Source: Alphaproteobacteria bacterium
GTDB taxonomy: Bacteria > Pseudomonadota > Alphaproteobacteria > MPNO01
Reading direction: 5' to 3'
Length of the DNA stretch: 64,000 nt
Assembly (NCBI GenBank): GCA_965200535.1
Contig: CBDAUF010000002.1
Span: 403,995 to 467,994 of the forward strand
A program made the position numbers and the translations under genes. How positions within the stretch are numbered: the first letter of the stretch is position 1; every line of letters begins with the position of its first letter. Positions 34,848 through 50,772 of this stretch are shown piece by piece. The notes beneath the pieces were generated by a model, which was not told the origin of the DNA, searched no databases, and was given only the letters and a program-made list of their open reading frames with translations.

Positions 34848-35690
34848 TTACAGCCCGAGAATCGACTCCGCGTTGCCGTGGAAGAATTTTTCCAGGAATG
34901 TGTCGCTGTAGCCGACCTGGCCCCATTCCTCGAACAGCCGCGGGTAAGGCATCGACGGGTAGTCGCTGCCGAACATGACCTTGTCCCTGAGGCGCGAGCG
35001 CATGTCGCGGAGCAGCGAGGCGGGGATGTATTTCGGCGCCCAGCCCGACATTTCCCAGAACACGTTGCCCTTGTGCAGCGCGACCGCGGTCATTTCCTCG
35101 ATCCACGGCCAGCCGGGATGTGCCGCCACGATGGTGAGCGTCGGGAAGTCCGCGGCGATGTCGTCGATCGACGACGGGTGGGCATGGCGGATCCTGGCGC
35201 CGAGACCCCCCGGCATCCCGGCGCCCATACCGGTGGTGCCGACATCGATCATCACCGGAACCCCCAGGGCGGCGATGGCTTCCCAAAGCGGGTAGAAGCG
35301 GCGTTCGTTGACCGCGAAATGGCCCATGATGGGGTGGAAGTGAAAGCCGAGCATCCCGAGATCCCCGACCGCATGCTCGGCCTCGGCGATGGCGGCCTCT
35401 CCCTTCAGGGGGTCGACCGCGCCCCATGCCTGGACGATGCGCTCCGGGTGGCGCTTCCACATGCCCGCGACGTAGTCGTTGGAGCATGGCGGGGTGCCCA
35501 CGGTGGTCTCCAGGTCGAGCGCCACCAGCACGGCATCGACGCCCGCCTCGGCGAAATCGCGGACCACCTCTTCTTCCTCTTTGGCGGTCCAGTCGCGTTT
35601 CCAGTACTCCGCCAGCGCCTCGACATAGGGCCCCTGGCAGTCGATCCAGGGCTGGGTGTTGGGATAGCAGTGCAGGTCGATTATGCGCAT
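34848..35690 (-). CDS. Amidohydrolase_2 (ACMSD / aryl-acid decarboxylase-like) family metal hydrolase
   Basis: MRIIDLHCYP..., HFHP, VAAHPGWPW and FGSDYP motifs. This is the only coding-looking part of the 953-aa track ORF 34848..37709. Confidence 0.75.
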   Translation of the reverse strand: MRIIDLHCYPNTQPWIDCQGPYVEALAEYWKRDWTAKEEEEVVRDFAEAGVDAVLVALDLETTVGTPPCSNDYVAGMWKRHPERIVQAWGAVDPLKGEAAIAEAEHAVGDLGMLGFHFHPIMGHFAVNERRFYPLWEAIAALGVPVMIDVGTTGMGAGMPGGLGARIRHAHPSSIDDIAADFPTLTIVAAHPGWPWIEEMTAVALHKGNVFWEMSGWAPKYIPASLLRDMRSRLRDKVMFGSDYPSMPYPRLFEEWGQVGYSDTFLEKFFHGNAESILGL

Positions 35691-35704
35691 CGATGGGCCC
35701 GCCG

Positions 35705-37354
35705 CTAACCGTCTGCCTCTGCCGCGAGCTTCGCGGAGATGGTCTCCACCAGGGTCTTCTTCGAGACCTTGCCGAAAGCGGAGACCGGGAAGCTGTCGAC
35801 GATCTCGATCCGCTCGGGCAGCTTGAAGCGGGCGATTTCCTTGGCCTCGAGGAACCGGACCAACTCGCCCAGTTCGACGCGCCCGCCCGGATGGAGGATC
35901 AGGTAGGCGCACATGCGCTCGCCGAGGCGGGCGTCGGGCATCGGAACGCACGCCACATTGCGCACCGCCGGGTGCATGAGGATCAGGTTTTCGATCTCCT
36001 CCGCCGAAATCTTCTCGCCGCCGCGGTTGATGAGGTCCTTGATCCGCCCTTCGACGATGTAGTTGCCGGACGGATGCTGGCGCAGGAGGTCGCCCGACCG
36101 GTAGAAGCCGTCGTTGGTGAAGGCCCGCGCGTTGTGTTCCTCCGCCGCGAAATAACCGCGCAGGGTGTAGGGGCCGCGCACGCAAAATTCGCCCACCTCG
36201 CCGAACGGCACCACGTTGTCGTCCTCGTCCAGCAGCATCACCTCGTCGTCCGCACACATCGGCTGACCCACCGTTTCGAGTTGCGCATCCTCGCTGTCGG
36301 TGCGCTTGACGAACATCAGCGTGCCCTCCGCCATGCCGAAATTCTCCTGCACGAAGGCGTTGGGATAGACCTCGCGCATCCTGCGCTTGACCTCGGGCTG
36401 GAGGCGCTGGCCGCCGCTGCCGATCATCCGCACCGACGACAGGTCGTGATCGGCGGCCGCGGGATCGTTGATCCAGCCGATATGCAGCGCCGGAACGCCG
36501 ATGACATGGGTGACGCGGTGCTTCTCGATCATCGCGAAGGCGTTCGGCGCCCGGGCGCTGGTCGACAACACCACCGCTGCACCGGAGAGCAGGTAGCCCT
36601 GCAATCCCGGGCAGGCGAGCGGCAGGTTGTGCGCGATCGGCAGCACGATCAGCAGGCGGGACTCCGGCGTCACCTCGGTTTCCCGCGCCGCCTGTTTCGA
36701 GTTGTAGGCGTAATCGTTGTGGCTGCGCGGGATCAGCTTGGGGATCCCGGTGGTGCCGCCGGACAACTGGAACACGGCGGGGTCGGCCGGATCGATATCG
36801 ATGGCGGCGAGCGCCCCGGCATCGAGCGGCGCCGGCCGTTCGATCAGCCGGTGCAGCGAGAGCGCCTCCCCCTCCGCGTCGCCCATGACGATGAGGTGTT
36901 TCAGATGGCTGTTTTCCGCCTGCACGCGCACCGCCATGGCGCGGTAGTCGAAGCCTCGTATGACATCCGGAACCACGCAGGCGGCGGCGCCCGAGAGCGC
37001 CGCGAACTGGTTGATTTCGGCGAATCGGTGAGTGACCAGCGCGGCGATGGGGATACAGCCGGCCTTCTGCAAGGCCACGTAGAGGACGGCGAACTCCCGC
37101 ACGTTGGGAAGCTGGACGACCACCCGGTCGAGCGGCTGCAGGCCCAACGCGACCAGGTTGAGCGCCAGGTTGGTCGACAGCCGGTCGAGTTCGCCGTAGG
37201 TGTACTGTCCGGTCTCGTCGATCACTGCCACACGGTCGGCAAATCTTTCCAGGCACGGCTGCAACTCCTCGCGCAGCGTGCGGTCTTCCCAGTACCCCTT
37301 TTCGCGGTAGATCTTCCGGAACTCCGGGGGAAAGGGAACGACGCCTTCCAGCAT
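35705..37354 (-). CDS. Aryl-acid adenylating enzyme (EntE/DhbE-like ANL-superfamily ligase)
   Basis: SGGTTGIPKLIPRSHNDYAYN, AHNLPLACPG, YRSGDL and GRIKDLINRGGEKISAEEIE. Collinear with 2,3-dihydroxybenzoate/salicylate-AMP ligases over its whole length. Confidence 0.85.
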   Translation of the reverse strand: MLEGVVPFPPEFRKIYREKGYWEDRTLREELQPCLERFADRVAVIDETGQYTYGELDRLSTNLALNLVALGLQPLDRVVVQLPNVREFAVLYVALQKAGCIPIAALVTHRFAEINQFAALSGAAACVVPDVIRGFDYRAMAVRVQAENSHLKHLIVMGDAEGEALSLHRLIERPAPLDAGALAAIDIDPADPAVFQLSGGTTGIPKLIPRSHNDYAYNSKQAARETEVTPESRLLIVLPIAHNLPLACPGLQGYLLSGAAVVLSTSARAPNAFAMIEKHRVTHVIGVPALHIGWINDPAAADHDLSSVRMIGSGGQRLQPEVKRRMREVYPNAFVQENFGMAEGTLMFVKRTDSEDAQLETVGQPMCADDEVMLLDEDDNVVPFGEVGEFCVRGPYTLRGYFAAEEHNARAFTNDGFYRSGDLLRQHPSGNYIVEGRIKDLINRGGEKISAEEIENLILMHPAVRNVACVPMPDARLGERMCAYLILHPGGRVELGELVRFLEAKEIARFKLPERIEIVDSFPVSAFGKVSKKTLVETISAKLAAEADG

Positions 37355-37372
37355 GACGGCCTCCCGGGCGGT

Positions 37373-38137
37373 TCAGGTGACGGCGGTAAAGCCGCCGTCG
37401 ATGACGACGATGTGGCCGGTGACGAACCTGTTGCCCTCGATCAGGCCGAGCATGGTCTCCGCCACGTCCTCCGCGGTGGCGATCCGCTTCAGAGGCGTGT
37501 AGCGCGCCCGCCGCGCCATCAGCCCTTCGTAATTCCCGGCCAGAGTGCGCTCCATCCACTCGCCTTCCATCCAGCCGGGGGCCACCGCGTTGACCCTGAT
37601 CTCGGGGCCAAGCGCGCCAGCCAGCGTCTGCGTCAGATTGGCCACCGCCGCCTTGCTGGCGGCGTAGGGCAGCGGCTGCGGGCCGGGCCGCAGCCCGGCG
37701 ATGGAGCACGTGTTGACGATGCAGGGATCGGAGGATTTGCGCAGCAGGGGCACGGCGGCGCGGGTGACCTGGAACAGGCCGCGCACGTTGACGGCGAAGA
37801 CGCGGTCCCAGGCGTCGAGATCGACGCCGTCCATGTCCTTCGGTCCGGTCTCGACGGTGGTGCCGGCGTTGTTGATCAGGACATCGAGGCGGCCGAAAGC
37901 GTCCTCGCAGGCGGCGAGCATAGCCTTGACGCCGGCGTCATCGGCGACATCGCACCTGACCGCGAACGCCTTTGCGCCCTCCGCTGTGCAGGCGGCCACC
38001 GTCTCCTCCGCGCGCGCCCCGGAGGCCGCGTAGTTGACGGCGACGTCGTAGCCCGCGCGGGCGAGCGCCACGGCCGCCGCGGCGCCGATGCCGCTCGACG
38101 ATCCGGTCACCAGTGCAGCCCGCCGTTCGCCGTTCAT
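37373..38137 (-). CDS. Short-chain dehydrogenase/reductase (FabG/EntA-like)
   Basis: TGSSSGIG cofactor motif and YAASKAA catalytic motif. The internal ATG 38137 was chosen as the start. Confidence 0.85.
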   Translation of the reverse strand: MNGERRAALVTGSSSGIGAAAAVALARAGYDVAVNYAASGARAEETVAACTAEGAKAFAVRCDVADDAGVKAMLAACEDAFGRLDVLINNAGTTVETGPKDMDGVDLDAWDRVFAVNVRGLFQVTRAAVPLLRKSSDPCIVNTCSIAGLRPGPQPLPYAASKAAVANLTQTLAGALGPEIRVNAVAPGWMEGEWMERTLAGNYEGLMARRARYTPLKRIATAEDVAETMLGLIEGNRFVTGHIVVIDGGFTAVT

Positions 38138-38262
38138 GCAGAAACTCCGGGATCGGGGAAAAGGCTCGGAAGCCAATCGGTCGACCGGCGGCCAGTATTC
38201 TAGCCGGGAGCGGCGCGGTCAATTTGCCGCGGATCGGGGCCGCCCTCCATCGGCCGGGCGCA

Positions 38263-39000
38263 TCACCGCCGCCGCTTTCCGGCGAGGGCCGCGATCATTT
38301 CCCGGTATCGCGCGGACAGCCTTGCCGCCGGGCTGCCGGGGTCGGCGGCGCAGGCCGCACACATGTTGAGGCTGGTATAGGGAGCAGGCCGAACGTTGAC
38401 CGCCCGGGCGATCTGCGCCTGCTCCTCCCCGGTTTGCGGGAGAAGCGATTCCCCGCCTTCGATGCGGCGGCGCATCTCCGCCTCGTCGCCGCCGGCGCGG
38501 CGCAGCATCAGATCGAATGTCGCGCGCTCGAACGCGGCCGCTTCCTCGTAGTGCGCCGCGACGCAGCACCGGGGAAAGCCGAGAAGCCGGGCCTCCTGCG
38601 CGACGGTCGGACGCCCGCCGGAGGCGGCGAGCGCCTTGACCTCTTCCGCAACGGCGCGGGCCCTGGCGACGTAGTGCGCCCGTCCGCCCTCGATCCGGGT
38701 TCGGGACGGGGCGGTGAACCACTCCGGCAGGTCGGAGGCTGCCGGTTCCGCCTGCCAGTAGGGTCCGGGCACGACGTGGAGCCGGTTCGCCGCCGCGAGA
38801 TCGAGCACCACCGCACACCAGCCGTCGTGGTCGAACCCGCGGCCCGACACGTAGACCGGTTTGATCCCCGCCATCGCCGCAACGAAATCGATCGCTTCCT
38901 GTTCGGCTGTCCGGTGGATGTAGCGGTCCGACCAGTCGATCTTCGCCGTATGGAGCTTTCTCAGCGCCGAACGCAGCCTGGGCTTGTCCGGCAGCCTCAC
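38263..39000 (-). CDS. Hypothetical Cys-rich protein (no family recognised)
   Basis: 245 aa. The GTG start overlaps the MFS stop (GTGA at 38997-39000). Motifs GFPRCCVAAHY and NMCAACAADP. Confidence 0.5.
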   Translation of the reverse strand: MRLPDKPRLRSALRKLHTAKIDWSDRYIHRTAEQEAIDFVAAMAGIKPVYVSGRGFDHDGWCAVVLDLAAANRLHVVPGPYWQAEPAASDLPEWFTAPSRTRIEGGRAHYVARARAVAEEVKALAASGGRPTVAQEARLLGFPRCCVAAHYEEAAAFERATFDLMLRRAGGDEAEMRRRIEGGESLLPQTGEEQAQIARAVNVRPAPYTSLNMCAACAADPGSPAARLSARYREMIAALAGKRRR

Positions 39001-40535
39001 GGGCCTGCCCTCCGCCGCCGCGGAGGCCCGGCGGTGCGCAACAACGCGACCAGCGGAATCGTTGCCAGGGCCGCGATGGCGATGGCGTGAAAGTCGTTGG
39101 CAAACCCGATCGCCTGCGCCTGGCGGAAGATCTCGCTGTCGAGCGACGCCAGGCCCGCGGGCGTCGAGAGATCCCAGTCCTGCGGCAGGTAGGGGGGAAG
39201 GGCGCCCTCGCTGTAGGGGTTCACCCGCCACGAAATCTCACCGTGCGAGACCGTCCGGGTGCGGCTCAGAATCGCAACGACGATGGAAACGCCGACCCCG
39301 GAGCCGTAGTTGCGCGCCAGGCTGGTCAGGGTGGACGCCTCCGTCCTGTGGCGCGCCGGCAGGGTCTCGAAACAGATCACGGTGAGCGGCACCCAGATGA
39401 AGCCGATGCCCAGCCCGTTGACGAATGCCGCCACGGAGACATCGTAGAGGTCGACATCGGGCGAGAACGTCGAAAGATCATAGGACGAGACGGCGACGCA
39501 GGCGAAGCCCAGCGCTGCGACCAGCCTGCCGTCCACGCGGCGGGCCAGCCATCCGGCGAGCAGGAGCGAGACGAAGGTGCCGAGGCCGCGCGGCGCCATC
39601 ACGAACCCGGCGGTCATCACCGGAAGCCCGCGGAGCGCCTGCAGGAACAAGGGCAGGATCACGTTGAGGGCGAGTACGCAGACGCCGAGCAGGAACATGA
39701 AAAAGAGGCCGAGCACGAGGTTCCGATCGGACAGGATGCCGCGCGAGATGAAGGGATTGTCGGTGGTCAGGGAATGGGCGGCGAAGATGTAGAAGCCGAG
39801 CACGACGACCGCCGCCTCGATGACGATCTCGGGCGACTCGAACCAGCCCTTGAGTTCGCCGCGGTCGAGCAGGAGTTGCAGCGCGGCGAGCGCGCAGGCG
39901 AGGGCGACGAAGCCGAACAGATCGAACGGACGGTCTTCCTTGGCGAGCGTCTCGCGCATGAACGCGAGCCCGAGCGCGAGGCCGGCGAGGGCAAAGGGAA
40001 TGCCGATGAAGAAGATCCACTGCCAGCCATAGTTCTCGGTGACGAAACCGCCGACCACCGGCCCCATGACCGGGGCGAACATCACTCCGGTTCCCCAGAT
40101 CGCAAGCGCCGCGCCGTGCCGTTCGGGCGGGTAGTTGTCGAGCATCAGCGCCTGGGAGATCGGGATCACCGGCGCGCTCATCGCTCCCTGGAAGGCGCGG
40201 TAGACGAGGATCTCGGGCAGCGATGTCGCGCTTCCCGACAACAGCGAAAAGCCCATGAAACCGGTGAGGGCGAGCAGGAAGGTGCGCTTGCGCCCGATAC
40301 GGTCCGCCACCCAGCCGGTGCATGCCGTGGACACCGCCTGACAGACGAAATAGGTGGTCATCACCCAGCCGATCTGGTCCTGGCTGGCGCCCAGGCTTCC
40401 CTGCATGTGAGGCAGCGCGATCGAGGCGATGGTCATGTCGAGAATGACGACCGTGGTCGCCATCATCACCGCGACGGTAACCATCGAACGCGCCAGGTCG
40501 GACCGGGGCGGGTCCGGCCCTGCGGCCGACGTCAT
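38997..40535 (-). CDS. DHA2-family (EmrB/QacA-type, 14-TMS) MFS efflux permease
   Basis: MFS motif A GWVADRIGRKR, about 512 aa. ATG 40535 overlaps the HlyD stop (ATGA). Confidence 0.85.
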   Translation of the reverse strand: MTSAAGPDPPRSDLARSMVTVAVMMATTVVILDMTIASIALPHMQGSLGASQDQIGWVMTTYFVCQAVSTACTGWVADRIGRKRTFLLALTGFMGFSLLSGSATSLPEILVYRAFQGAMSAPVIPISQALMLDNYPPERHGAALAIWGTGVMFAPVMGPVVGGFVTENYGWQWIFFIGIPFALAGLALGLAFMRETLAKEDRPFDLFGFVALACALAALQLLLDRGELKGWFESPEIVIEAAVVVLGFYIFAAHSLTTDNPFISRGILSDRNLVLGLFFMFLLGVCVLALNVILPLFLQALRGLPVMTAGFVMAPRGLGTFVSLLLAGWLARRVDGRLVAALGFACVAVSSYDLSTFSPDVDLYDVSVAAFVNGLGIGFIWVPLTVICFETLPARHRTEASTLTSLARNYGSGVGVSIVVAILSRTRTVSHGEISWRVNPYSEGALPPYLPQDWDLSTPAGLASLDSEIFRQAQAIGFANDFHAIAIAALATIPLVALLRTAGPPRRRRAGP

Positions 40536-41593
40536 TCGCCCGGAGCCATGAACGCGAGGGCCGAGCCGAAGAAATCGAACAGCGAAATGTCGCGTTTGGT
40601 GTCGATGCTGACCGACACCGTGACACCCGCCGGCATGTCGAACGGCCGCCCGGTCGCGTCGTCGATCTCTATCCGCACCGGCACCCGCTGGACGATCTTG
40701 ACCCAGTTCCCGGAAGCGTTCTGCGGCGGCAGGACGGAGAGTTCGGCGCCTGTCGACGGGCTGATGCTTGCAACCCGCGCCCGCCACGAGAGGTCCGGAT
40801 AGGCGTCGACGACAATCTCCGCCTCCTGCCCGACCTCGACGTGGGTCAGCTGGGTCTCCTTCAGGTTGGCCTCGACCCAGGCGCCGGCGGTCTGGATCAG
40901 CGGCATGACCGCTTCGCCCGCCTCGACATACTCGCCGCCCTGCAGCCGGATCCGTCCGATGGCGCCGTCCGCGGGCGCGTGGATCACGGTGCGCTTCATA
41001 TCGATTTCGGCGCGGTCGCGCGCCGCCAGCGCGTGGAGAAACTGCGGGCTGTCTTCGGCTCTGAGTTCGGGGTTGCCGCCGAGGCTGGCGAGGATACGGA
41101 GACCCTTCTGGCGGATCGTTCTGGCCCGCTGGCGGGCCGCTGCCAGCTTCTGTTCGGCCTCCTCGAACCGTGCGCGCGAGGCGTGACCTCGCCCGGAGAG
41201 CGACCTCAGGCGATCGAAGACGCGCTTGTGGTAGGCGATCTCCTGTTCGGCCTCCTCGAGCTCGGTCTGGGCGCCGCGATAGGAGGCGCGGAGCGCGTGG
41301 ATCTCGTTTCTGACCAACGCCAGCCTCGCATCGGCCTCGGCCAGGGCGACGCGGAAAGGCGCCGGGTCGATGGAAAAGATCGGATCGCCCGTCTGCACGA
41401 GCGCGTTCTCCCGCACGAACACGTCGGCGACCCGGCCCGATATTTCCGCGCTGATGCGGATCAGGTTGGTCTTCACATAGGCGTTTTCGGTTGTCACGTA
41501 GCGGCCTGCGGCGACCCAGAAATGCGCGCCTGCGGCAATAGCCGCCCCCGGCACGACGACGAGCAGGAGTATGCGCAGCAGTCCGCGCTTCAC
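40532..41593 (-). CDS. HlyD/EmrA-family membrane fusion (periplasmic adaptor) protein
   Basis: N-terminal TM segment (LLRILLLVVVPGAAIAAGA), a coiled-coil middle and a beta-barrel C-terminus. GTG 41593 was chosen. The upstream start at 41671 (track ORF start) is an alternative. Confidence 0.8.
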   Translation of the reverse strand: MKRGLLRILLLVVVPGAAIAAGAHFWVAAGRYVTTENAYVKTNLIRISAEISGRVADVFVRENALVQTGDPIFSIDPAPFRVALAEADARLALVRNEIHALRASYRGAQTELEEAEQEIAYHKRVFDRLRSLSGRGHASRARFEEAEQKLAAARQRARTIRQKGLRILASLGGNPELRAEDSPQFLHALAARDRAEIDMKRTVIHAPADGAIGRIRLQGGEYVEAGEAVMPLIQTAGAWVEANLKETQLTHVEVGQEAEIVVDAYPDLSWRARVASISPSTGAELSVLPPQNASGNWVKIVQRVPVRIEIDDATGRPFDMPAGVTVSVSIDTKRDISLFDFFGSALAFMAPGE

Positions 41594-41802
41594 CGCCTCT
41601 ACCCCTTCCCCTGTCCGGCCCGCCGCAAGCCGGCGGTTTCCCGGATCGAACCCAGGTTCGCCAGAGTACAAGTATTCTCCACGACCGGCAAAGCGCGCGG
41701 CCGCGACGAATGCGACGGGACGGATGTGCGGACGGATGTTGTCTGCCGGCCGGACGACCGTATTATTGCACCGGATCGGAGGCGGGCGGCGCGAGAGGGA
41801 AG

Positions 41803-42648
41803 ATGGGTTTCCGCATCGACAGACTTCACGACTCCATCGGCGCCGAGATTGTCGGCGTCGATCTCGCGAAACCGTTGTCCGACGCCGAAACCGCCCGCAT
41901 CGAGAGCGCGTGGCTCGAGCACATCGTGCTCGTCTTCCGCGGCCAGAAACTCGATCAGGACGCGCAGCTCCGGTTCGCGGCGCAGTTCGGCGTGGTCGGC
42001 GAACGGTCGCGGCCGGCGGCGCTCAGGCCCGAGGGCGCCGATTTCCACCCGGCGATCATCTTGGTCTCCAATATTCGCGAGAACGGCCGGCCGATCGGCT
42101 CCCTGCCCGACGGCGAGATGTGGTTCCACCACGACATGTGCTACGTGGCCGAGCCGTACCGGGGCACCATGCTCCACGCGCTCGAGATCCCGACGACCGG
42201 CGGCAACACCCTGTTCGCCAACATGTATGCGGCCTACGACCGTCTCGACCCCGCCACCAGGGCGCGGATCGCCGGTCTGCAGGCGCTCCAGATTTACAAC
42301 TACTCGGTTACCGAACGGGTTTCGCTGGACAGCGATCTGGACGCATACCCGCACTGCGTCCAGCCGGTCGCGATCGCCCATCCGAGGACCGGGCGCAAGG
42401 CGCTCTACGTCAATCCGCTGATGACGGCTCGTATCGAGGGGCTGCCGGCGGCGGAGAGCGACGCGCTGCTTGAGGAGTTGTTCGCGTTTACCGGCGACCG
42501 CGGGCTCATCTACGAGCATGTCTGGCGCGAGGGCGATCTGGTGATGTGGGACAACTGGTGTTCGTGCCACGCGCGCACCGATTTTCCGGCAACCGAACGC
42601 CGGCTGCTCCGGCGCTGCACCATCCTCGGCGAAGCGCTGGCGGAATAG
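41803..42648 (+). CDS. TauD/TfdA-family Fe(II)/2-oxoglutarate dioxygenase
   Basis: GAGAGGGA RBS. HxD in WFHHDMCY, and a distal His/Arg in CSCHARTDF. Confidence 0.8.
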   Translation: MGFRIDRLHDSIGAEIVGVDLAKPLSDAETARIESAWLEHIVLVFRGQKLDQDAQLRFAAQFGVVGERSRPAALRPEGADFHPAIILVSNIRENGRPIGSLPDGEMWFHHDMCYVAEPYRGTMLHALEIPTTGGNTLFANMYAAYDRLDPATRARIAGLQALQIYNYSVTERVSLDSDLDAYPHCVQPVAIAHPRTGRKALYVNPLMTARIEGLPAAESDALLEELFAFTGDRGLIYEHVWREGDLVMWDNWCSCHARTDFPATERRLLRRCTILGEALAE

Positions 42649-42659
42649 GAGGCCATGAA

Positions 42660-43505
42660 ATGGCGTTCAGAACGAAAATGCTGTCTCCGCATATCGGCGT
42701 CGAGGTCATCGGGCTCGACCTCTCCAGCAGGCCCGACGAGTCGACGATCGGACGGCTCTACGATCTCTGGCTCGACAGGCTTCTGGTGGTCTTCCGCGGC
42801 CAGTCGCTGACCCAGGAGACGTTGCTGGAGGTCACCGGGTATTTCGGCGAGCCCGGGGCCAATGCGCGGCCGAAGGAATACCGCACCTCGGGGCAGCACG
42901 AAATGCTGCCCGGCATCATGCTCATCAGCAACGTGCGGGCGAACGGCGAGCCCATCGGCGCGCTGCCCGACGGCGACATGATGTTCCACCACGACATGAT
43001 CCACGCCGACATCCCGGACAAGGCGACCTGCCTCTACGCCGTCGAGATCCCGTCGGAGGGCGGCGAGACCCTGTTCGCCAGCGGCTACGCCGCCTATGAG
43101 ACGCTCGATCCCGCGTTCCGCGATGGGCTCGAGGGGAAGTGCGCCTTCCACCATTACAATTACGGCTCGCAGCACCGCGGAGACGATATCGGCACGCCGG
43201 CTTTCTCGGAGTCCCGGCACCCCGTCTTTCGCACCCATCCCGAGACCGGCCGCAAGGCGGTCTATGTCGATCGCCTGATCACCATGTCGATCGACGGCAT
43301 GGCGGAGAACGCAAGCGATGCCGCCCTGACCCGGCTGTTCGACCATTCGGAGCAGGACGGGTTCGTCTACGAACATGTCTGGCAGGAGGGCGACCTGCTG
43401 CTCTGGGACAACCGGTGCTCGATGCACGCCCGGCGGGATTTCCCCTCCGCCGAGCGGCGGCTCCTGTGGCGTACCACGGTGAAGAGCGACGAGCGGCCGG
43501 TCTGA
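42660..43505 (+). CDS. TauD/TfdA-family Fe(II)/2-oxoglutarate dioxygenase (paralogue)
   Basis: AGGAGG RBS at 42647-42652. MFHHDMIH and CSMHARRDF. Collinear with the upstream paralogue. Confidence 0.8.
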   Translation: MAFRTKMLSPHIGVEVIGLDLSSRPDESTIGRLYDLWLDRLLVVFRGQSLTQETLLEVTGYFGEPGANARPKEYRTSGQHEMLPGIMLISNVRANGEPIGALPDGDMMFHHDMIHADIPDKATCLYAVEIPSEGGETLFASGYAAYETLDPAFRDGLEGKCAFHHYNYGSQHRGDDIGTPAFSESRHPVFRTHPETGRKAVYVDRLITMSIDGMAENASDAALTRLFDHSEQDGFVYEHVWQEGDLLLWDNRCSMHARRDFPSAERRLLWRTTVKSDERPV

Positions 43506-43517
43506 GGGAGAGGCTTC

Positions 43518-44330
43518 GTGGGCAAGGCGCTGAGCGCCGTTCAGGTCGAGGCCTACCGGCGGGACGGCTTCGTATTCCCGGTCCGGATCATGGAGCGCGC
43601 GGAGGCGGACGCCCTGCACCGGCGGTTCGACGCGCTCGAGGCCGAGACCGGGGCCGAATTGCAGAGCCGGTTCAAGATCAAGGCGCACCTGCCGCTGACC
43701 TGGCTCAACGACCTGGTGCGAAACCCCGTCATGCTCGATGCGGTGGAGGACCTGATCGGCCCCGATATCCTGTGCTGGGGCTCGAGCTTCTTCACCAAGC
43801 GGGCGCACGACCCCCGCTTCGTCTCGTGGCATCAGGACTCGACCTATTACGGGCTGCGCCCCGCCGAGACCGTCACCACGTGGGTTGCGTTCACCGACAG
43901 CAAGATCGAGTCCGGCTGTGTCCGCTTCGTTCCCGGAACCCACAGGGGCGGGATCCTGGATCACGAGGAGACGATGGACCCCGAAAACCTGCTGATGAAA
44001 GGCCAGACTATCAACGGGATCGACGAGACCCGGGCCGTCGATTGCGAGCTTTCCCCCGGCGAGATCTCGATCCATCACGAATCGGTGGTGCACGGGTCGA
44101 ACGCCAACACGTCCGCCCGCCCGCGGATCGGCCTGTCGATCCACTATATCGCCCCGCACGTGCGCCAGACGGCGTTCGACGACGCGACCGCGCTGGTGGT
44201 GCGGGGGCGCGACACCCACGGCCACTGGAAACCCGAACCCGAGCCTCGGCGCGATCTCGATCCGGTCTGCCTCGCCGCCCTCGACGAGGTTTATGCGCAG
44301 TACCGGAGCGGGCGGGGCAAGCGCGTCTGA
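43518..44330 (+). CDS. Phytanoyl-CoA dioxygenase (PhyH) family Fe(II)/2OG oxygenase
   Basis: SWHQDSTYY (HxD) and IHHESVVHGS. 270 aa with a GTG start. Confidence 0.8.
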   Translation: MGKALSAVQVEAYRRDGFVFPVRIMERAEADALHRRFDALEAETGAELQSRFKIKAHLPLTWLNDLVRNPVMLDAVEDLIGPDILCWGSSFFTKRAHDPRFVSWHQDSTYYGLRPAETVTTWVAFTDSKIESGCVRFVPGTHRGGILDHEETMDPENLLMKGQTINGIDETRAVDCELSPGEISIHHESVVHGSNANTSARPRIGLSIHYIAPHVRQTAFDDATALVVRGRDTHGHWKPEPEPRRDLDPVCLAALDEVYAQYRSGRGKRV

Positions 44331-44355
44331 CGGGGCGGGACGGCGGTTCCCGGGC

Positions 44356-45204
44356 ATGGTGCGGCGTGCGATGCCGAACCCCGGCGCGGCGCCCCTTTCC
44401 CGGCTGATCGAGGCGGACCACGGGTGCATCGCCTGCCGGGAGGCGGGCGATGCCTCCCGGCCCGCCATCGTTCTCTTGCACGGTCTCGGCGGGAACGCCG
44501 CAATGTGGCGGCGGCAATACGCTGCGCTTTCGGACCGCTTCCGCGTCCTCGGCTGGGACATGCCGGGCTACGGCGGTTCCGACCCGCTCCCGGGGATGCC
44601 GGGGCCGGCGGAGTACGCCCGTGCGCTGGCCGTCCTGCTCGACAAGATCGGCGTCGCCGCGGCCTGCGTCGTTGGCCAGTCGGCGGCGGCGCTGATCGCC
44701 GCGTCCCTTGCGCGCGCCCGGCCCGAACGGGTCGCCGCCCTGGTTCTCGCCCACCCGTTGTTCGGATTCGGGGCGCTGCCGCCCGCCCGGCGCGCGGCCG
44801 CTGTCGAGGAGAGGGCGGGCGCGTTCGAGCGGCTGGGGCCGCACGCCTTCGCCCTGGACCGGGCGCCGCGCCTCCTCGCTCCCGGCGCGCCGAAAGAGCT
44901 CGTCGCCGAGGTCGTCGACGGCATGGCGGCTGCACGCCCGGCCGGTTACCGGCAGGCGGTCGCGATGATGGCAAACGCGGACCTTCCGTCCGACATCGCG
45001 CGGGTCGCCGCACCGGTCACCGTGATCGCCGGCGCGCATGACCCTCTGGCGCCGCCGGAACGCTGCCGCAGCCTCGGTGCGCACCTCGTCGCGGTCGAGC
45101 GGGCGGGGCACTATGCCGCCCTCGAACGGCCGGACGCGTTCAACGCCGCGGTCGCCGCCGCCGCAGGCGGCAAATGGCCTCCTGCGGGGCAAGCCGCCGG
45201 GTAG
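44356..45204 (+). CDS. Alpha/beta-fold hydrolase
   Basis: LLHGLGGN oxyanion region and the nucleophile elbow VGQSAAA (G-x-S-x-A/G). The start is uncertain (44293, 44356 or 44371). Confidence 0.75.
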   Translation: MVRRAMPNPGAAPLSRLIEADHGCIACREAGDASRPAIVLLHGLGGNAAMWRRQYAALSDRFRVLGWDMPGYGGSDPLPGMPGPAEYARALAVLLDKIGVAAACVVGQSAAALIAASLARARPERVAALVLAHPLFGFGALPPARRAAAVEERAGAFERLGPHAFALDRAPRLLAPGAPKELVAEVVDGMAAARPAGYRQAVAMMANADLPSDIARVAAPVTVIAGAHDPLAPPERCRSLGAHLVAVERAGHYAALERPDAFNAAVAAAAGGKWPPAGQAAG

Positions 45205-45329
45205 ACCGCGGGCCGCAGCGATTCTGCGCGGCACTGGAGATTCGTCTCCCGCGATGGTCTATGTTCCCCCGCCAGTCCAGTGCCCGCCGCTTCCCCCGCC
45301 GCACGGCAGTCAATGTGGAACCGCGTCCG

Positions 45330-46334
45330 ATGATCGAACGCAGAAAACTCCGGATCGGGGTCGTCGGCTGCGGCCGCTGGGGGCGGAATCTGGTCCGCAA
45401 CGTTCACGAGATGGGCTTGCTGGCAGCGGTCAGCGACATCGACGCCGAAACCGCGGCCGCCTTTGCCGCCCGCTACGGGGTTCCTGCCCTGACCGCCGGA
45501 GACCTGCTGGATGCGGATCGGATCGATGCTGTCGTCATCGCGGTTCCGGCGGAAGACCACGGAAAGCTGGCGCTTCGCGCGGTTGCCGCCGGCAAGCATG
45601 TCTTTGTCGAGAAGCCGATGGCGGTCTCCGATGCGGAAGCGCTCTCCCTGGCCGCCGCGGCCCGGGACCGCGGCCGCGTGCTGATGGTCGGTCACGTGCT
45701 GAGATATCACCCGTGTTTCCGGGAACTCCACCGCATCGTGGATGCGGGCGGGATCGGCCGCATCCGGCATATCCGCACGGTCAGGGGAGCGAGCCGCGCT
45801 TTCCGCCGCGACGAAAACGTGCTCTGGGGTTTTGCGCCGCACGATATTTCGATGATCCTCGCGCTGACCGGCGAAGCGCCCACGGGCGTCGCCGCACTCG
45901 GAGACTGCAGCCCCGGACGGCGGGGCCCCGACGTTGCAACGGCCGTGTTCGACTTCCCCTCGGGGATAAGGGCGGACCTGTTCGTCTCCTGGTTCAATCA
46001 CGTCAAGGAACAGAAACTCATCGTATCGGGAGAAACCGGCGCGATCGTGTTCGACGACTGCGAGGACTGGGAAAGCAAGGTGACGATTTACCGCGACGGC
46101 GGCGGGAGCGACCGCATCGCGGTCGAACGGGGAGAGCCCCTGCGTATCGAGTGCGAGCACTTTGTCGAGTGTATCTCCAACGGCCGGGAACCGCTGACCG
46201 GCGGCGCGGAGGGGGTCGAGGTCGTCCGCGCTCTCGCGGCCATTGCCCGGTCCATGGCGTCGGGCGGGCGGGTGGAGATGGCCGCCTGCCGCCCGCCCGG
46301 GGCGCAATCCCGTGCGACCGGGGCCGGCCGATGA
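45330..46334 (+). CDS. Gfo/Idh/MocA-family NAD(P)-dependent oxidoreductase
   Basis: Rossmann motif IGVVGCGRWGRN and the VFVEKPMA motif. Confidence 0.8.
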   Translation: MIERRKLRIGVVGCGRWGRNLVRNVHEMGLLAAVSDIDAETAAAFAARYGVPALTAGDLLDADRIDAVVIAVPAEDHGKLALRAVAAGKHVFVEKPMAVSDAEALSLAAAARDRGRVLMVGHVLRYHPCFRELHRIVDAGGIGRIRHIRTVRGASRAFRRDENVLWGFAPHDISMILALTGEAPTGVAALGDCSPGRRGPDVATAVFDFPSGIRADLFVSWFNHVKEQKLIVSGETGAIVFDDCEDWESKVTIYRDGGGSDRIAVERGEPLRIECEHFVECISNGREPLTGGAEGVEVVRALAAIARSMASGGRVEMAACRPPGAQSRATGAGR

Positions 46335-47458
46335 TCCCCTTTATCGATCTGGGCGCCCAGAGAGCGCGCCTCGACGGCCGGATCGAGGCTGCGATCGCGC
46401 GCGTCCTCGACCACGGCGCCTTCATCATGGGTCCCGAAGTCCGGCAGCTTGAGGACCGGCTTGCCGGATATTGCGGGGCGGGAAATGCGATCGCCTGTTC
46501 GAGCGGAACCGACGCGCTGCTGCTTGCCCTGATGGCGCTCGGCGCCGGCCCCGGCGATGCGGTGCTGGTTCCGGGTTTCACCTTCGTGGCGACGGCCGAA
46601 GCCGTCGTCCTCGTCGGTGCGACCCCGGTCTTCGTCGATATCGAACGGAACGGGTTCTGTCTCGCCGAAGACGCCCTCGAGGCCGGCGCGGCCGCGGCCG
46701 TCGACCGGGGTCTGCGGCCGGTCGGCGTCATCGCCGTCGACCTCTTCGGCCAGCCCGCCGATTACGATCCGATCGAGCAGGCGGCCGGGGAACTGGGGCT
46801 GTGGCTGGTGTGCGATGCGGCGCAGAGCTTCGGTGCGGCCTATCGCGGCCGCAGGGTCGGCACCATCGGCACGGTGACGACCACCAGTTTCTACCCGTCG
46901 AAACCGCTCGGCTGCTACGGCGACGGGGGCGCGCTGTTCACCGACGACGATGCCCTCGCCCGCACCATTCGTTCGATCCTCGAGCACGGCGCGGGCGAGG
47001 ACAGGTATCACAATGTCCGGATCGGGATGAACGGCCGGCTCGACACCCTCCAGGCGGCGGTCCTTCTCGAAAAGCTTTCGGTGTTCGATGACGAGATCGC
47101 ACGAAGAGACGCCGTCGCCGCGCGCTATTCCGAGGCGTTCGGCCGGCTGAACGCCCTCGCGGTTCCGCGGATCCGCGAGGGTGCGACATCGGTGTGGGCC
47201 CAATACACGCTGTTGCTCGACGGTCACGACCGCGATGCGTTCCGGGCCCGGCTTCGCGAACGCGGCGTCCCCACGGCGGTCTACTATCCGCAGCCGCTCC
47301 ACCGGCAGCCGGTCTACCGGGATTTCCCGGCGGCGAAAGACGGTCTGCCGGTTTCCGAGGAGCTGAGCCGGCGCGTGGTCAGCCTTCCGCTGCACGCCTA
47401 TCTCGATCCCGCCGTGCAGCGCCGGATCGTCAGCGCGGTCGGAGAGGCGGTGTCCTGA
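46331..47458 (+). CDS. DegT/DnrJ/EryC1/StrS-family PLP-dependent aminotransferase
   Basis: CSSGTDAL, DAAQSFGA and SFYPSKPLGCYGDGGA (PLP lysine). ATGA overlap with the upstream oxidoreductase. Confidence 0.9.
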   Translation: MIPFIDLGAQRARLDGRIEAAIARVLDHGAFIMGPEVRQLEDRLAGYCGAGNAIACSSGTDALLLALMALGAGPGDAVLVPGFTFVATAEAVVLVGATPVFVDIERNGFCLAEDALEAGAAAAVDRGLRPVGVIAVDLFGQPADYDPIEQAAGELGLWLVCDAAQSFGAAYRGRRVGTIGTVTTTSFYPSKPLGCYGDGGALFTDDDALARTIRSILEHGAGEDRYHNVRIGMNGRLDTLQAAVLLEKLSVFDDEIARRDAVAARYSEAFGRLNALAVPRIREGATSVWAQYTLLLDGHDRDAFRARLRERGVPTAVYYPQPLHRQPVYRDFPAAKDGLPVSEELSRRVVSLPLHAYLDPAVQRRIVSAVGEAVS

Positions 47459-47482: not shown

Positions 47483-49564
47483 TCAGACCGGCCGGATCCA
47501 GACGGCGGTGTCGTGGTAGACCGCACCGCCGTAGGGCGGGCCGGGTTCGGCGCTGACCAGCGCGTTGACCCCGAGGCCTTCCTCGAACGCGGCGTTCGGC
47601 CAGATGCCTTCGATGATCGCCACGCCGCGCTGCATCCCGTCGAACGGCTCGGCATGGACGACGATGCTGGCCAGCCGGTTGCCCACCCGCACCCGGCCGC
47701 CCGCGGATGCGCCGACCGCCACCAGGTCCTCCGGGTGCAGCTTGACCGTCGGCCTGCCCTCGCGCTTCCGCGAGGATGGCGTCTCGGTGAAGCTGCTGTT
47801 GAGATAGCTGCGTGACGGCGCGGTCACCAGGCGGAACGGGCGCTCGTCGTCGGCCTCATCGACGATCGCCAGATGGTCCGGCAGTTCGGGCATCCGGTCC
47901 CCGTCGCGGCCGGTCGCCGACCAGTCCGGCCGGAAGCGGAACCGGCCGTCCGCATGGCCGAACCCGTTCTGGAAGCGCATCTCTGCGGACGGCCTGGCGC
48001 AGTCGATCCAGCGGCCGTCGGCCGCCGTGTCGGCGTCGCCGAGCCCGGAGGCCCTGAGCGTTGCGTCGATGATCTCCCATTCGCTCATGCGGAAGCCGGG
48101 ATGGTCGATGCCGAGGCGCTCGGCCAGCCCGCACAGCACGGCGTGGTTCGACCGGCACGCGCCGAGCGGCTCGATGGCCCTGCGCGCCACCTGGAGGAAG
48201 GTGTGGCCGCCCGCGACATACATGTCGTCGTGCTCCAGGAAGGTCGTCGCCGGCAGCACGATATCGGCCATGGCGGCGGTCTCGGTCATGAACTGCTCGT
48301 GGACGCAGACGAACAGGTCGTCCCGCAGAAAGCCCTCGCGAACCTTGCGGGTTTCCGGCGCCACCATCATCGGATTGGTGTTCTGGATGAACATCGCCTT
48401 GACCGGCTGCGCCGCGCTCCCGCCGCCGATATCGCGCGCATCGCCGGTCAGGACCGGGCCGATCCGCGCTTGGTCGAGCAGCCGCGTCGACCTGTCCATC
48501 GCGTCGAGCCCGCGGATCAGGGTGAAATCGACGCCATAGAGGTCGCCGTTGGAATAGAGCGCCCCGCCCGCGCGGTGGCGCCACTTGCCGGCGACGGTCG
48601 GGATGCAGCTCACCGCGTGCATGTTGGCCGCGCCGTTGCGCGAGCGGGTGAAACCGTAGCCGACCCGCATATAGGCCCGGTCGGTGCGGCCGTAGAGGGC
48701 GGCGAAGGCTTCGATCTCGGCGGTCGAGAGCCCGGTGATGGCGGCGGCCCAGTCCGGCCCCCGGGTTCGCAGATGGGCCTCCAGCGCCGCCGGGCAATCG
48801 GCGTACTGCTCCATGAACTCCCGGTCGGCGTAGCCGTCGCGGAACAGGATGTGCATCACCGCGCAGGCCAGCGCGCCGTCGGTGCCCGGCCGCAGGGCGA
48901 GATGCATGTCCGCCTGTTCCGCCGTGCCCGTGCGGTAGGGGTCGATGACGACCAGCCGGGCGTCCCGGTCCCTGCGCGCCCGCGCGATGTGCGTCATCAC
49001 GTTGATCTGGGTGTTCACCGGGTTGCCGCCCCACACCACGATGAGGTCGGCCTCCTGCATATCCCGCGAATCGGTGCCGCGCTTGGCGCCGGCCCCGGCG
49101 CGCCAGCCGGCGTCCGCCAGGGCGACGCAGAACGTCGAGTGCTGGCGCGCATAGCGCATGGTGTGGCGCAGACGGTCGATGCCGTCGCGCTGCACCAGCC
49201 CCATGGTGCCGGCGTAGAAATAGGGCCACACCGACTCGCTGCCCCATTCGGCGGCGGCGGCCTGCAGCCTGTCGGCGACCTCGTCCAGCGCCTCGTCCCA
49301 GCCCACCGGCGCGAATGCGGAGACGCCTTCGCCCTTGGCCCCCGTGCGGCGCAGCGGATGCGTCAGGCGGGCCGGGTGGTGCACCCGTTCGGCGTAGCGG
49401 GCGACCTTGGCGCACACCACCCCGGCGGTATAGGGATTGCTTCTGGCGCCGTGGATGCGGCCGATCGTGGCGGAGTCCAGGCGTTCCACATCCAGCGCGC
49501 AGGTGCTGGGGCAGTCGTGCGGGCAGGTCGAGGGAACGATCTCGGGCGCGGCGTCCAGCGGCAT
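47483..49564 (-). CDS. Molybdopterin (bis-MGD) oxidoreductase family protein with an N-terminal 4Fe-4S motif
   Basis: CPHDCPSTCAL Cys cluster and 693 aa. MopB-like core with a C-terminal MGD-binding beta-barrel region. No signal or Tat motif seen. Confidence 0.85.
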   Translation of the reverse strand: MPLDAAPEIVPSTCPHDCPSTCALDVERLDSATIGRIHGARSNPYTAGVVCAKVARYAERVHHPARLTHPLRRTGAKGEGVSAFAPVGWDEALDEVADRLQAAAAEWGSESVWPYFYAGTMGLVQRDGIDRLRHTMRYARQHSTFCVALADAGWRAGAGAKRGTDSRDMQEADLIVVWGGNPVNTQINVMTHIARARRDRDARLVVIDPYRTGTAEQADMHLALRPGTDGALACAVMHILFRDGYADREFMEQYADCPAALEAHLRTRGPDWAAAITGLSTAEIEAFAALYGRTDRAYMRVGYGFTRSRNGAANMHAVSCIPTVAGKWRHRAGGALYSNGDLYGVDFTLIRGLDAMDRSTRLLDQARIGPVLTGDARDIGGGSAAQPVKAMFIQNTNPMMVAPETRKVREGFLRDDLFVCVHEQFMTETAAMADIVLPATTFLEHDDMYVAGGHTFLQVARRAIEPLGACRSNHAVLCGLAERLGIDHPGFRMSEWEIIDATLRASGLGDADTAADGRWIDCARPSAEMRFQNGFGHADGRFRFRPDWSATGRDGDRMPELPDHLAIVDEADDERPFRLVTAPSRSYLNSSFTETPSSRKREGRPTVKLHPEDLVAVGASAGGRVRVGNRLASIVVHAEPFDGMQRGVAIIEGIWPNAAFEEGLGVNALVSAEPGPPYGGAVYHDTAVWIRPV

Positions 49565-49785
49565 AGCGCGGGTCTCCGGGCGGCGGGGGGAGGATGCGCA
49601 CTCTACGGCCGGCGTTTCCGCGGAGCAAGCTGCGCATGGTGCGCGGCGGGCGCCTATCGGGTGGAGATCGCGCGCGGAATCCTCTATCAGAGACTTGGCC
49701 GTCCCGCCTTTTCGGACGGGATGCCGCGCCGTTCGGCCGGGCGGGCGGAGAGCGGTCGCGCCCGGCCCCGGGGAAGGAGACGCGA

Positions 49786-50772
49786 ATGTCGGTCCCGGTC
49801 ATCGATATCGGCCCCTATTTGCAGGGCGGTCCGGAGCAGCGGCGCAGGGTGGCGGACGGGATCGCCGCGGCGTGCGAAGAATCCGGGTTTTTCTGTATCG
49901 TCGGGCACGGGGTTCCCGCCGGTCTGATTGCCCGCACCCGGCAGGCGGCGGCCGATTTCTTCGCCCTGCCGGCCGCCGAGAAGCGGTTGATCCTGCGGCC
50001 GGCGAACCGCGTCGGGCGCGGCTACTACCCGTTCGCCGACCGGTCGCTCGCCTACACGCTCGGCGTCGAGACGCCGCCGGACCTGCAGGAGGCCTATGCC
50101 ATGGGCCCGCCCGATGTCCCCGACGATCCCTACTACCGGGGCGAGACGGCGGCCTATTTCTTCGCCGACAACCGGTACCCGGCGCGGCCCGAAGGCTTCC
50201 GCGAGACGGTGGACGAGTATTTCCGCACACTGCTCGGCCTCGGCAACCGCCTGATGGGGGCGATGGCGCTCGCCCTCGGGCTCGACGAGGGGTTCTTCGC
50301 CGACAAGATCGACCGGCCGGCCTGCGCCATGCGCCTCATCCGCTACCCGGCGCAGAGCGATCGTCCGGCGGAGCGGCAGCTGCGCGCCGGCGCCCACACC
50401 GACTACGGCACGCTCACCATCCTGCGCGGGGACGACGTGCCGGGGACGCTGCAGGTCAAACTGAAGCAGGGCGGCTGGACCGATCTGCGCCCGCCCGCCG
50501 ACGCCTTCGTGTGCAATCTGGGCGATGCGATGGCGCGCTGGACCGGCGGCCGTTGGGCATCGACCCTGCACCGGGTCTCCAACCCGCCGGAGGGCGCCGC
50601 CCAGCGCGACCGTATCTCGCTGGTCTTCTTCCATCAGCCCAACTACGACGCGATGCTGGGCGGGATCTTCGACGACACGGGCGAGGCGGTGAGCCTCGCC
50701 GATCACTACATCGAGAAGATCCACCGGGCGGCGGGCGCCGGACACTCCCCCCCGCCCGCGGGCGCCGGATAG
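49786..50772 (+). CDS. 2OG-Fe(II) oxygenase, isopenicillin-N-synthase-like family
   Basis: GAAGGAGA RBS. VPVIDI N-terminus, HTDYGTLTIL (HxD), STLHRV and RISLVFF (RxS). Confidence 0.8.
   Translation: MSVPVIDIGPYLQGGPEQRRRVADGIAAACEESGFFCIVGHGVPAGLIARTRQAAADFFALPAAEKRLILRPANRVGRGYYPFADRSLAYTLGVETPPDLQEAYAMGPPDVPDDPYYRGETAAYFFADNRYPARPEGFRETVDEYFRTLLGLGNRLMGAMALALGLDEGFFADKIDRPACAMRLIRYPAQSDRPAERQLRAGAHTDYGTLTILRGDDVPGTLQVKLKQGGWTDLRPPADAFVCNLGDAMARWTGGRWASTLHRVSNPPEGAAQRDRISLVFFHQPNYDAMLGGIFDDTGEAVSLADHYIEKIHRAAGAGHSPPPAGAG

Follow-up and report, generated by a model that had tools for sequence, protein, structure and literature searches.

A 64,000-nucleotide stretch of the alphaproteobacterial contig CBDAUF010000002.1 (positions 403,995 to 467,994; hereafter, the window) carries a dense array of genes for oxygenases, other enzymes and an EmrAB-type efflux pump, which an original prediction had read as one small-molecule pathway spanning window positions 34848–50772 (hereafter, the interval). 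Sponge metagenomes and four sponge metatranscriptomes contain the exact window sequence, and the closest homologues of its PhyH-family oxygenase, with 88% identity, belong to Defluviicoccus sp. and other alphaproteobacterial metagenome-assembled genomes (MAGs); the organism is a sponge-associated, Defluviicoccus-like alphaproteobacterium. Comparison with related loci shows that the interval is inherited in separate modules, one of which is a core of oxygenase, efflux and orphan-protein genes that continues to the left of the interval.

Gene content and organization of the locus

Because the G+C content of the window is approximately 68%, genes were chosen by third-position GC (GC3) and start-codon context and checked against Pfam and NCBIfam; the resulting coordinates (Table 1) match the gene calls on identical public (Logan) contigs. 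On the minus strand, the genes for the EmrA adaptor and the EmrB pump overlap by ATGA, and those for EmrB and an orphan protein, here denoted unk, by GTGA; a gap of 125 nt then precedes a cassette of three genes encoding a short-chain dehydrogenase/reductase (SDR), an aryl-AMP ligase and an amidohydrolase. On the plus strand, the genes from TauD1 to the alpha/beta hydrolase are separated by 11, 12 and 25 nt, the gap between the hydrolase and Gfo genes is again 125 nt, and an ATGA overlap is confined to the Gfo–DegT pair. Left of the interval, the gene for a DapA-like protein begins one base past the stop codon of a bicupin gene.

The pump is a DHA2 permease of the major facilitator superfamily (MFS) with 14 transmembrane segments, scoring 359 bits against TIGR00711 (efflux_EmrB; cut-off 230). 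The adaptor reaches 224 bits against TIGR00998, below the cut-off of 391, but matches the Pfam families HlyD_D23 and HlyD_3 above theirs. No sequence match to unk was obtained in Pfam, NCBIfam or the PDB. The protein has 77 homologues among 5.8 billion sequences, and a profile search retrieved 319 representative clusters. C145, C146 and V147 are invariant, and 90% or more of the sequences retain H150, C214 and C217, the residues together forming a CCV..H plus CxxC signature. The AlphaFold model is confident (predicted local distance difference test score of 95; predicted template-modelling (TM) score of 0.90), and a Foldseek search of the PDB found nothing of the same fold (best E = 1.1, TM score of 0.14). 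A Pfam scan of distant unk relatives returned just a C-terminal SEC-C zinc-binding motif and one spurious ankyrin protein.

At the level of genes, the original prediction fared well: its gene list is correct, and the coordinates could be refined. Its description of two divergent, translationally coupled gene sets needs correction for the plus strand, where coupling does not extend along the whole set and only Gfo and DegT overlap. The label "Cys-rich" for unk was overstated, since the protein has 6 Cys in 245 residues. As the prediction had it, Pfam scans of all called proteins of the interval revealed no polyketide synthase (PKS), non-ribosomal peptide synthetase (NRPS), terpene synthase, ATP-grasp enzyme, other scaffold-forming or condensing enzyme or carrier domain. 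It is likewise right that there is no regulator gene, in the interval or elsewhere in the window, although orthologous loci do carry a MarR gene upstream of EmrA.

Table 1 Positions of the genes and regulatory features of the locus in the window
Feature	Coordinates	Strand	Basis or remark
Bicupin, distantly gentisate/5-aminosalicylate 1,2-dioxygenase-like	29394–30524	+	Left of the interval
DapA/DHDPS-family protein	30525–31436	+	Pfam DHDPS 2.8e-69
TRAP transporter DctP, DctQ and DctM	31617–34787	DctP -; DctQ and DctM +	Pfam DctP/DctQ/DctM
Amidohydro_2 protein	34848–35690	-	Pfam/NCBIfam; PDB 3irs 5e-23
Aryl-AMP ligase, EntE/CahJ-like	35705–37354	-	Pfam/NCBIfam; PDB 5wm2 1e-143
SDR	37373–38137	-	Pfam/NCBIfam
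Promoter-like site, 125-nt gap before SDR	38194–38222	-	Consensus scan, TTGACC-17-AATACT; weak alone
Orphan protein unk, 245 aa	38263–39000	-	No Pfam/NCBIfam match
EmrB-type DHA2 MFS pump	38997–40535	-	TIGR00711
EmrA/HlyD adaptor	40532–41593	-	Pfam HlyD_D23, HlyD_3
Divergent intergenic region, 209 nt	41594–41802		Between EmrA and TauD1
Sigma-70-type promoter of the TauD operon	41739–41766	+	Consensus scan, TTGTCT-16-TATTAT
TauD1	41803–42648	+	Pfam
TauD2	42660–43505	+	Pfam
PhyH	43518–44330	+	Pfam
Alpha/beta hydrolase, PcaD-like	44356–45204	+	Pfam
Gfo/Idh/MocA, sugar-nucleotide 3-dehydrogenase-like	45330–46334	+	NF040723 match below cut-off
DegT aminotransferase, WbpE/GnnB-like	46331–47458	+	PDB 4qgr, 3nu7
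Cytoplasmic molybdopterin oxidoreductase	47483–49564	-	Pfam Molybdopterin, Molydop_binding, Fe4S4; convergent with DegT
DIOX_N/2OG-FeII_Oxy oxygenase, isopenicillin N synthase (IPNS)-like	49786–50772	+	Pfam

A conserved core and its passengers

Conservation was surveyed by aligning homologues of PhyH and mapping the window proteins onto 80 PhyH-centred genome loci with 10-kb flanks; a second survey started from unk. Co-occurrence was scored by tblastn, because a simple GC3-based gene caller skipped some genes in high-GC loci. TauD genes are present in 46 of the 80 PhyH loci, a number that includes three (L071, L074 and L076) with just a distant TauD match of 35–36% identity about 8 kb off. These 46 loci carry unk in 34 cases, EmrA in 29, EmrB in 28, a second PhyH in 22 and a DHDPS gene orthologous to that of the DapA-like protein (67–89% identity) in 19, and in 18 of them a MarR gene heads the Emr operon. 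The bicupin was recovered in nine, many loci ending short of its position; its orthologues (66–88% identity) adjoin DHDPS or unk in relatives. The operon block TauD–TauD–PhyH–hydrolase is co-conserved in 43 loci. The conserved core consists of the bicupin, the DapA-like protein, unk–EmrBA, TauD–TauD–PhyH and the hydrolase, to which relatives add MarR and the second PhyH.

When the survey is started from unk, the bicupin and the DapA-like protein are the steadiest partners (66–76% identity, versus 40–45% for unk itself), an ornithine-cyclodeaminase (OCD)/mu-crystallin gene, a hydrolase and TauD are often present, and EmrAB is found variably. In four loci (L016–L018 and L022), unk adjoins the TauD operon without EmrAB, and in another (L169), it adjoins the cupin–DHDPS pair without either TauD or Emr. 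Kept beside the enzymes in loci devoid of EmrAB, unk thus seems to be linked to the enzymes rather than to the pump.

In the window, as in locus L008, the block directly follows secY–adk, the end of the ribosomal-protein operon. Distant loci keep the cupin–DHDPS pair, unk, Emr and TauD–PhyH together at 50–75% identity with secY and adk not nearby, so the core association is not merely inherited ribosomal-operon synteny. The block is rearranged in L022, and the PhyH orthologue stands alone in Binatia and Thermodesulfobacteriota. Besides sponges, the core locus occurs in MAGs of free-living plankton and from lakes. Its neighbours in distant loci include genes for a Rieske ring-hydroxylating alpha subunit, luciferase-like monooxygenase, HpaB, GMC oxidoreductase, amidase, UbiD and an acyl-CoA ligase. 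A TauD–TauD–PhyH–PhyH block faces a Rieske oxygenase in both L085 and L086; the oxygenase block of L086 (2586–7040) adjoins two phage-type integrases and a transposase, and that of L085 (5621–6880) a group II intron reverse transcriptase. These neighbours suggest that the oxygenase block is horizontally mobile.

The other genes of the interval follow different distributions. The SDR–ligase–amidohydrolase trio accompanies the core in 8–9 of the 46 TauD-bearing loci, all of the Defluviicoccus-like clade, and in L008, it is replaced by a gene of the metallo-beta-lactamase fold. A metagenome scan with the ligase yielded more than 557 relatives, 80 loci of which (L089–L168) were retrieved and mapped. 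The trio is widespread across soil, lake and marine metagenomes and keeps the same order in most of these loci, at 60–78% identity. All but one of the 80 loci lack oxygenase and efflux genes, the exception being a Defluviicoccus-like contig with TauD, PhyH and Emr. Insertion of the trio at the core locus is specific to the Defluviicoccus-like clade. Elsewhere, its recurrent neighbours are a divergent LysR gene, enoyl-CoA hydratase, thiolase and a second Amidohydro_2 gene, joined by TctC and by uptake components of the Bra-type/ABC or MFS kinds.

The ligase itself resembles adenylating enzymes of siderophore synthesis; it is closely related to CahJ, DhbE and EntE, matches PDB 5wm2 (1e-143) and DhbE (2.5e-136), and scores 529 bits against TIGR02275 (2,3-dihydroxybenzoate–AMP ligase; cut-off 724). 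A role in siderophore formation or aroyl transfer was nevertheless rejected on the gene context and the missing carrier protein: no aryl-carrier protein, isochorismatase or NRPS is encoded beside the ligase in the window. The association of its orthologues with LysR, enoyl-CoA hydratase, thiolase and uptake genes renders a catabolic enzyme likelier, and judged from sequence and context, the protein is more likely an aryl- or acyl-coenzyme A (CoA) ligase. The trio as a whole appears to represent an uncharacterised CoA-dependent catabolic route using a siderophore-type adenylating enzyme.

The tripartite ATP-independent periplasmic (TRAP) transporter genes between the DapA-like protein and the amidohydrolase were not seen in relatives. 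Four loci (L004, L007, L010 and L036) lack them, their DHDPS gene lying right against that for the amidohydrolase, and the junction (31436–34848) is variable, being occupied by TRAP genes in the window and by another insert, of 3.5 kb, in L089.

By tblastn, none of the 80 PhyH loci contains Gfo (at a threshold of at least 40% identity), DegT, the molybdoenzyme or the IPNS-like oxygenase. In the closest relatives (88% identity), the place of Gfo–DegT behind the hydrolase is taken by pntA/pntB and genes for a phosphatase, an aquaporin and CopD. The nearest non-self homologues of DegT are 72–74% identical, whereas neighbouring genes have relatives at 88–94%; thousands of alphaproteobacterial DegT homologues are found at 60–65% identity. 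The Gfo–DegT pair recurs in L087 and L088 among unrelated genes (57–60% and 67–72% identity). DegT is closest to 4qgr, a DegT-family aminotransferase (1e-116), and to WbpE (3nu7, 2e-110), and Gfo matches the UDP-N-acetylglucosamine (UDP-GlcNAc) 3-dehydrogenase model NF040723 (1.5e-46; 159 bits, cut-off 450). Gfo also matches 7bvj (1.3e-22), which we take to be GnnA, an assignment that a literature search did not confirm. The products of gnnA and gnnB convert UDP-GlcNAc to UDP-GlcNAc3N for lipid A and are widespread in Alphaproteobacteria (PMC7663294). The pair fits a WbpB/WbpE- or GnnA/GnnB-type module for 3-oxidation and 3-amination of a nucleotide sugar, which for GnnA/GnnB is UDP-GlcNAc (leading to GlcN3N lipid A) and for WbpB/WbpE is UDP-GlcNAcA. 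We rejected an aminocyclitol or amino-sugar natural product made via Gfo–DegT, the pair being WbpE-like, independent and missing from relatives. The molybdoenzyme reaches no NCBIfam equivalog, and the sole sign of the IPNS-like family is in L085, where a 33%-identical member lies some 4 kb away from TauD; both genes lie outside the conserved locus.

Promoters, transcription and genomic surroundings

The divergent region between EmrA and TauD1 holds the promoter of the TauD operon. Its hexamers are mostly invariant (TTGTC and TAT.AT) in seven members of the clade, whereas the flanks vary. In the same region (41594–41802), relatives share an inverted-repeat element, GTTAGATTACTAAC, which is degenerate in the window (CCAGAGTACAAGTA). 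The repeat may be a candidate operator whose MarR regulator was lost in the clade of the window.

Metatranscriptome data were available from four sponge runs as unstranded assembled contigs of low depth, which may contain DNA, so that we regard them as supportive rather than decisive. Every gene of the interval is represented. Among the longest listed contigs, two begin at 41795 and 41797, immediately ahead of TauD1, and one covers 41797–43908, from TauD1 to PhyH; on the EmrA side, contigs end at 41613 and 41646. The stretch 41647–41794 is thereby left open between them, which argues for RNA as the source and not DNA. Other contigs start separately a short way ahead of Gfo, at 45304 and 45316, and contig depth over the hydrolase gene is below that on both sides. 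In three of the four runs, the highest contig depth falls on DctP. Two kinds of joints were also observed, one linking 38101 to 38491 across 30 foreign letters in two runs, and the other skipping 3244 nt from 43430 to 46675, also in two runs and backed by just 21 letters. Both probably arose when the assembly fused conserved motifs into chimeras, although strain variants are also possible.

Upstream of the bicupin, window positions 1–29262 form a housekeeping context, with the S10-spc-alpha operons for ribosomal proteins, secY, adk and genes for EF-G, an EamA protein, a MetE-like protein, S-adenosylhomocysteine hydrolase, an APH-family kinase, an AddB-like nuclease and an AddA-like helicase. 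Downstream of the interval, a gene at 51205–56853 (plus strand) encodes a protein of 1882 amino acids with FN3, Big_12, He_PIG and cadherin-like domains; adhesin-like "eukaryotic-like" proteins of this kind are frequently noted in sponge symbionts. At 59373–63167, an SdsA1-type alkyl sulfatase (MBL, Alkyl_sulf_dimr and Alkyl_sulf_C domains) adjoins a TRAP permease of 677 amino acids. Together with the TauD-family genes, this pair suggests a genome rich in functions for scavenging organosulfur compounds and organic acids.

Possible function of the core and comparison with known systems

The two TauD paralogues share 47% identity and retain both the HxD..H triad and the C-terminal Arg residues, which in TauD of Escherichia coli bind 2-oxoglutarate (2OG) and the anionic group of the substrate. 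The best PDB relatives of TauD1 are RdpA (1e-37), the 2,4-dichlorophenoxyacetate dioxygenase TfdA and TauD. Neither paralogue is a true taurine dioxygenase, their scores against NF007104 being 162 and 137 bits (cut-off 313), and both are assigned to the superfamily only. PhyH is closest to 6zyk, an uncharacterised "monooxygenase" (8e-46), for which, as for 6zyl, a literature search found nothing relevant; further PDB matches include GriE, MysH and EctD. It matches the N-terminal half of TIGR01762, and some homologues are named "halogenase". However, in its H105-Q-D107 motif, H105 and D107 are invariant in 22 homologues, which points to a hydroxylase-type enzyme; Fe(II)/2OG halogenases of the SyrB2/CytC3 type, with their HxA/G motif, were therefore rejected as a model. 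The bicupin carries an HRH..H motif in its C-terminal cupin domain and matches NCBIfam MabB (1.8e-23) and gentisate 1,2-dioxygenase (4.4e-16), both far below the cut-offs, and PDB 3bu7 (1e-16). MabB belongs to the mab cluster of the 3-aminobenzoate pathway (PMC9584955). The DapA-like protein falls in the DapA clade, with DapA enzymes as best PDB matches, and scores 247 bits against TIGR00674 (dapA), above the cut-off, and 296 bits against TIGR02313, below the cut-off.

We consider it moderately probable (about 0.6) that five or more units, each with its own line of inheritance, make up the interval as a mosaic, and that the first of them, the conserved core, serves to break down or detoxify an anionic aromatic or alicyclic compound by oxidation. 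Given that the TauD enzymes are closest to ether-cleaving RdpA and TfdA and to TauD, these enzymes and PhyH would oxidise, dealkylate or hydroxylate the substrate; the hydrolase could then open an ester or lactone, the bicupin cleave a hydroxylated aromatic acid and the DapA-like enzyme process the ring-fission product, with EmrAB acting as a relief valve that exports surplus substrate or toxic intermediates. The second unit would be the clade-specific insertion of the SDR/aryl-CoA ligase/Amidohydro_2 cassette from a CoA-dependent catabolic route and the third, a strain-specific TRAP importer. The fourth, the gnnA/gnnB- or wbpB/wbpE-type pair, would make a 3-amino sugar nucleotide for the cell envelope, and the molybdoenzyme and IPNS-like oxygenase would constitute a fifth, unrelated unit. 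Whereas the gene content, the modular inheritance, the conserved promoter and transcription in situ are shown by the data, we infer for the core what kind of substrate it acts on, in which order the steps run and that it is catabolic; the direction is suggested by the company that the core keeps, in which the bicupin, DapA-like protein, Rieske and luciferase-like oxygenases and acyl-CoA ligase point to catabolism or detoxification rather than biosynthesis. The original prediction had ranked a catabolic route as less likely.

Several observations weigh against the proposed oxidative core. None of the enzymes reaches an equivalog cut-off. The conserved core includes an exporter but lacks an importer, so that export or detoxification fits at least as well as assimilation. 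The similarity of the bicupin to ring-cleaving dioxygenases is weak (1e-16 to 1e-23), and the DapA-like protein, which passes the dapA cut-off, could be an ordinary or biosynthetic DapA. The frequent presence of the OCD/mu-crystallin gene with cupin–DHDPS in relatives is a hint that the chemistry concerns imino or amino acids and not aromatics. Finally, the RNA evidence comes from unstranded low-depth contigs that can contain DNA.

In an alternative reading, the core alone is biosynthetic, its 2OG oxygenases and DapA-like protein, with the OCD/mu-crystallin protein in relatives, converting a primary metabolite such as an amino or imino acid into an oxidised product that EmrAB exports. Cyclic imino-acid chemistry typically involves DapA-like and OCD-family enzymes, the TauD and PhyH families hold many amino-acid hydroxylases (as the matches to GriE, MysH and EctD illustrate), and a TauD plus PhyH pairing of the PtlD/PtlH type is known from pentalenolactone biosynthesis, although the NCBIfam matches to it are weak. 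The presence of an exporter and absence of an importer fit as well. We nonetheless regard such a pathway as unlikely, given that the neighbours are degradative (Rieske alpha subunit, HpaB, luciferase-like monooxygenase, amidase, UbiD and the gentisate dioxygenase-like bicupin), that the locus is common in streamlined planktonic MAGs, that MarR–EmrAB operons are typically relief pumps for drugs or aromatic acids and that the core contains no ligase, synthase or transferase able to build a scaffold.

Alternatively, the core could be a defence or detoxification island that oxidatively inactivates and pumps out a toxic compound made by the sponge or by neighbouring microbes, without assimilation of carbon. 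On present data, this possibility is hard to separate from the reading that we favour. In many loci, MarR/EmrAB and the oxygenases form a divergent pair, the sequence comes from a sponge metagenome, and the position of the L086 block by integrases and a transposase would suit a horizontally traded, resistance-like trait. We rate it as rather improbable all the same, because MAGs from the open ocean and from lakes carry this locus too and because the cupin and DapA-like genes suggest further breakdown beyond inactivation.

A single cluster across the entire 34.8–50.8 kb, making and exporting a hydroxylated, aminated and N-aroylated molecule such as an aroyl amino-sugar or aminocyclitol, was the proposal of the original prediction. 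The required enzyme types are indeed adjacent and tightly packed, with a dedicated exporter, and the representation of every gene in the sponge metatranscriptome contigs would be expected of such a cluster. The prediction itself named a lack of shared conservation in relatives as grounds for refutation, and such a lack was observed: of the genes of the interval, the efflux and 2OG-oxygenase core is co-conserved, whereas the trio joins it in the Defluviicoccus-like clade only, and Gfo, DegT, the molybdoenzyme and the IPNS-like oxygenase are missing from all 80 PhyH loci, even from relatives with 88% identity. The ligase trio and Gfo–DegT are independent modules elsewhere, Gfo lies behind a 125-nt gap and has RNA contig starts of its own, a promoter-like site precedes SDR, and neither a scaffold-forming enzyme nor a carrier protein is available. 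One pathway across the interval is therefore very improbable. Equally remote is the notion that the core genes lack any functional link and are neighbours just by inherited synteny, as their position after secY–adk in the window and L008 might suggest, considering the distant loci that keep them together elsewhere, the rearrangement in L022 and the mobile-element genes in L086.

Tentatively, the core might be an undescribed oxidative pathway, widespread among uncultured Alphaproteobacteria of marine, lake and sponge habitats, in which unk would be a new-fold metalloprotein with a Cys4/His site that is obligatory as an enzyme, sensor or chaperone and not an accessory of the pump. The orphan fold of unk, a small family with a confident predicted structure and no solved counterpart, and the widespread EntE-like catabolic cassette, which suggests recruitment of a siderophore-type adenylating enzyme into CoA-dependent catabolism, are the parts most worthy of follow-up. 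The core locus is recurrent, restricted to uncultured Alphaproteobacteria and transcribed in sponge tissue; knowing what it acts on could be relevant to how dissolved organic matter or metabolites of the host are turned over. The locus also carries a caution for genome mining: a dense set of tailoring-type enzymes beside an exporter resembled a biosynthetic cluster, and comparative genomics split it into modules.

The original prediction did not recognise the locus as any described pathway; a literature search likewise found none matching the core, and nothing specific was found on a TauD–PhyH cluster or on a pathway of a Defluviicoccus sponge symbiont. In its architecture, the core, with catabolic or detoxifying oxygenases beside a MarR/EmrAB pump, is a familiar kind of system, and all its enzymes come from well-known superfamilies; the comparison with individual systems reveals both likenesses and departures. 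The ligase is similar over its full length to the siderophore enzymes EntE, DhbE and CahJ, but falls below the TIGR02275 cut-off, is unaccompanied by a carrier protein or NRPS, and has orthologues next to LysR, enoyl-CoA hydratase and thiolase. Gfo and DegT form an adjacent, overlapping pair conserved as such elsewhere, as do gnnA/gnnB and wbpB/wbpE; unlike in those systems, Gfo is below every equivalog cut-off, and no wbpA, wbpD, wbpI or lpx genes are nearby. The bicupin has the architecture and HRH..H metal motif of the dioxygenases of gentisate, salicylate and 5-aminosalicylate 1,2-dioxygenase pathways, but its scores fall far below the cut-offs, and the partner downstream is a DapA-like protein instead of maleylpyruvate isomerase or hydrolase. 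TauD1 and TauD2 share with TfdA, RdpA, SdpA and TauD a full-length Pfam TauD domain, besides the intact triad and Arg residues, whereas the locus type is distinguished by two or three tandem paralogues followed by one or two PhyH genes; we know of no characterised operon with tandem TauD paralogues and PhyH. Finally, the efflux genes follow E. coli emrRAB in the order of adaptor and pump, in the overlapping stop and start codons and, in relatives, in the MarR gene at the operon head, but differ from it in that EmrA stays under both its equivalog and its subfamily cut-offs, that MarR is missing from the window and that the pump is translationally coupled to the gene for an orphan Cys/His protein.

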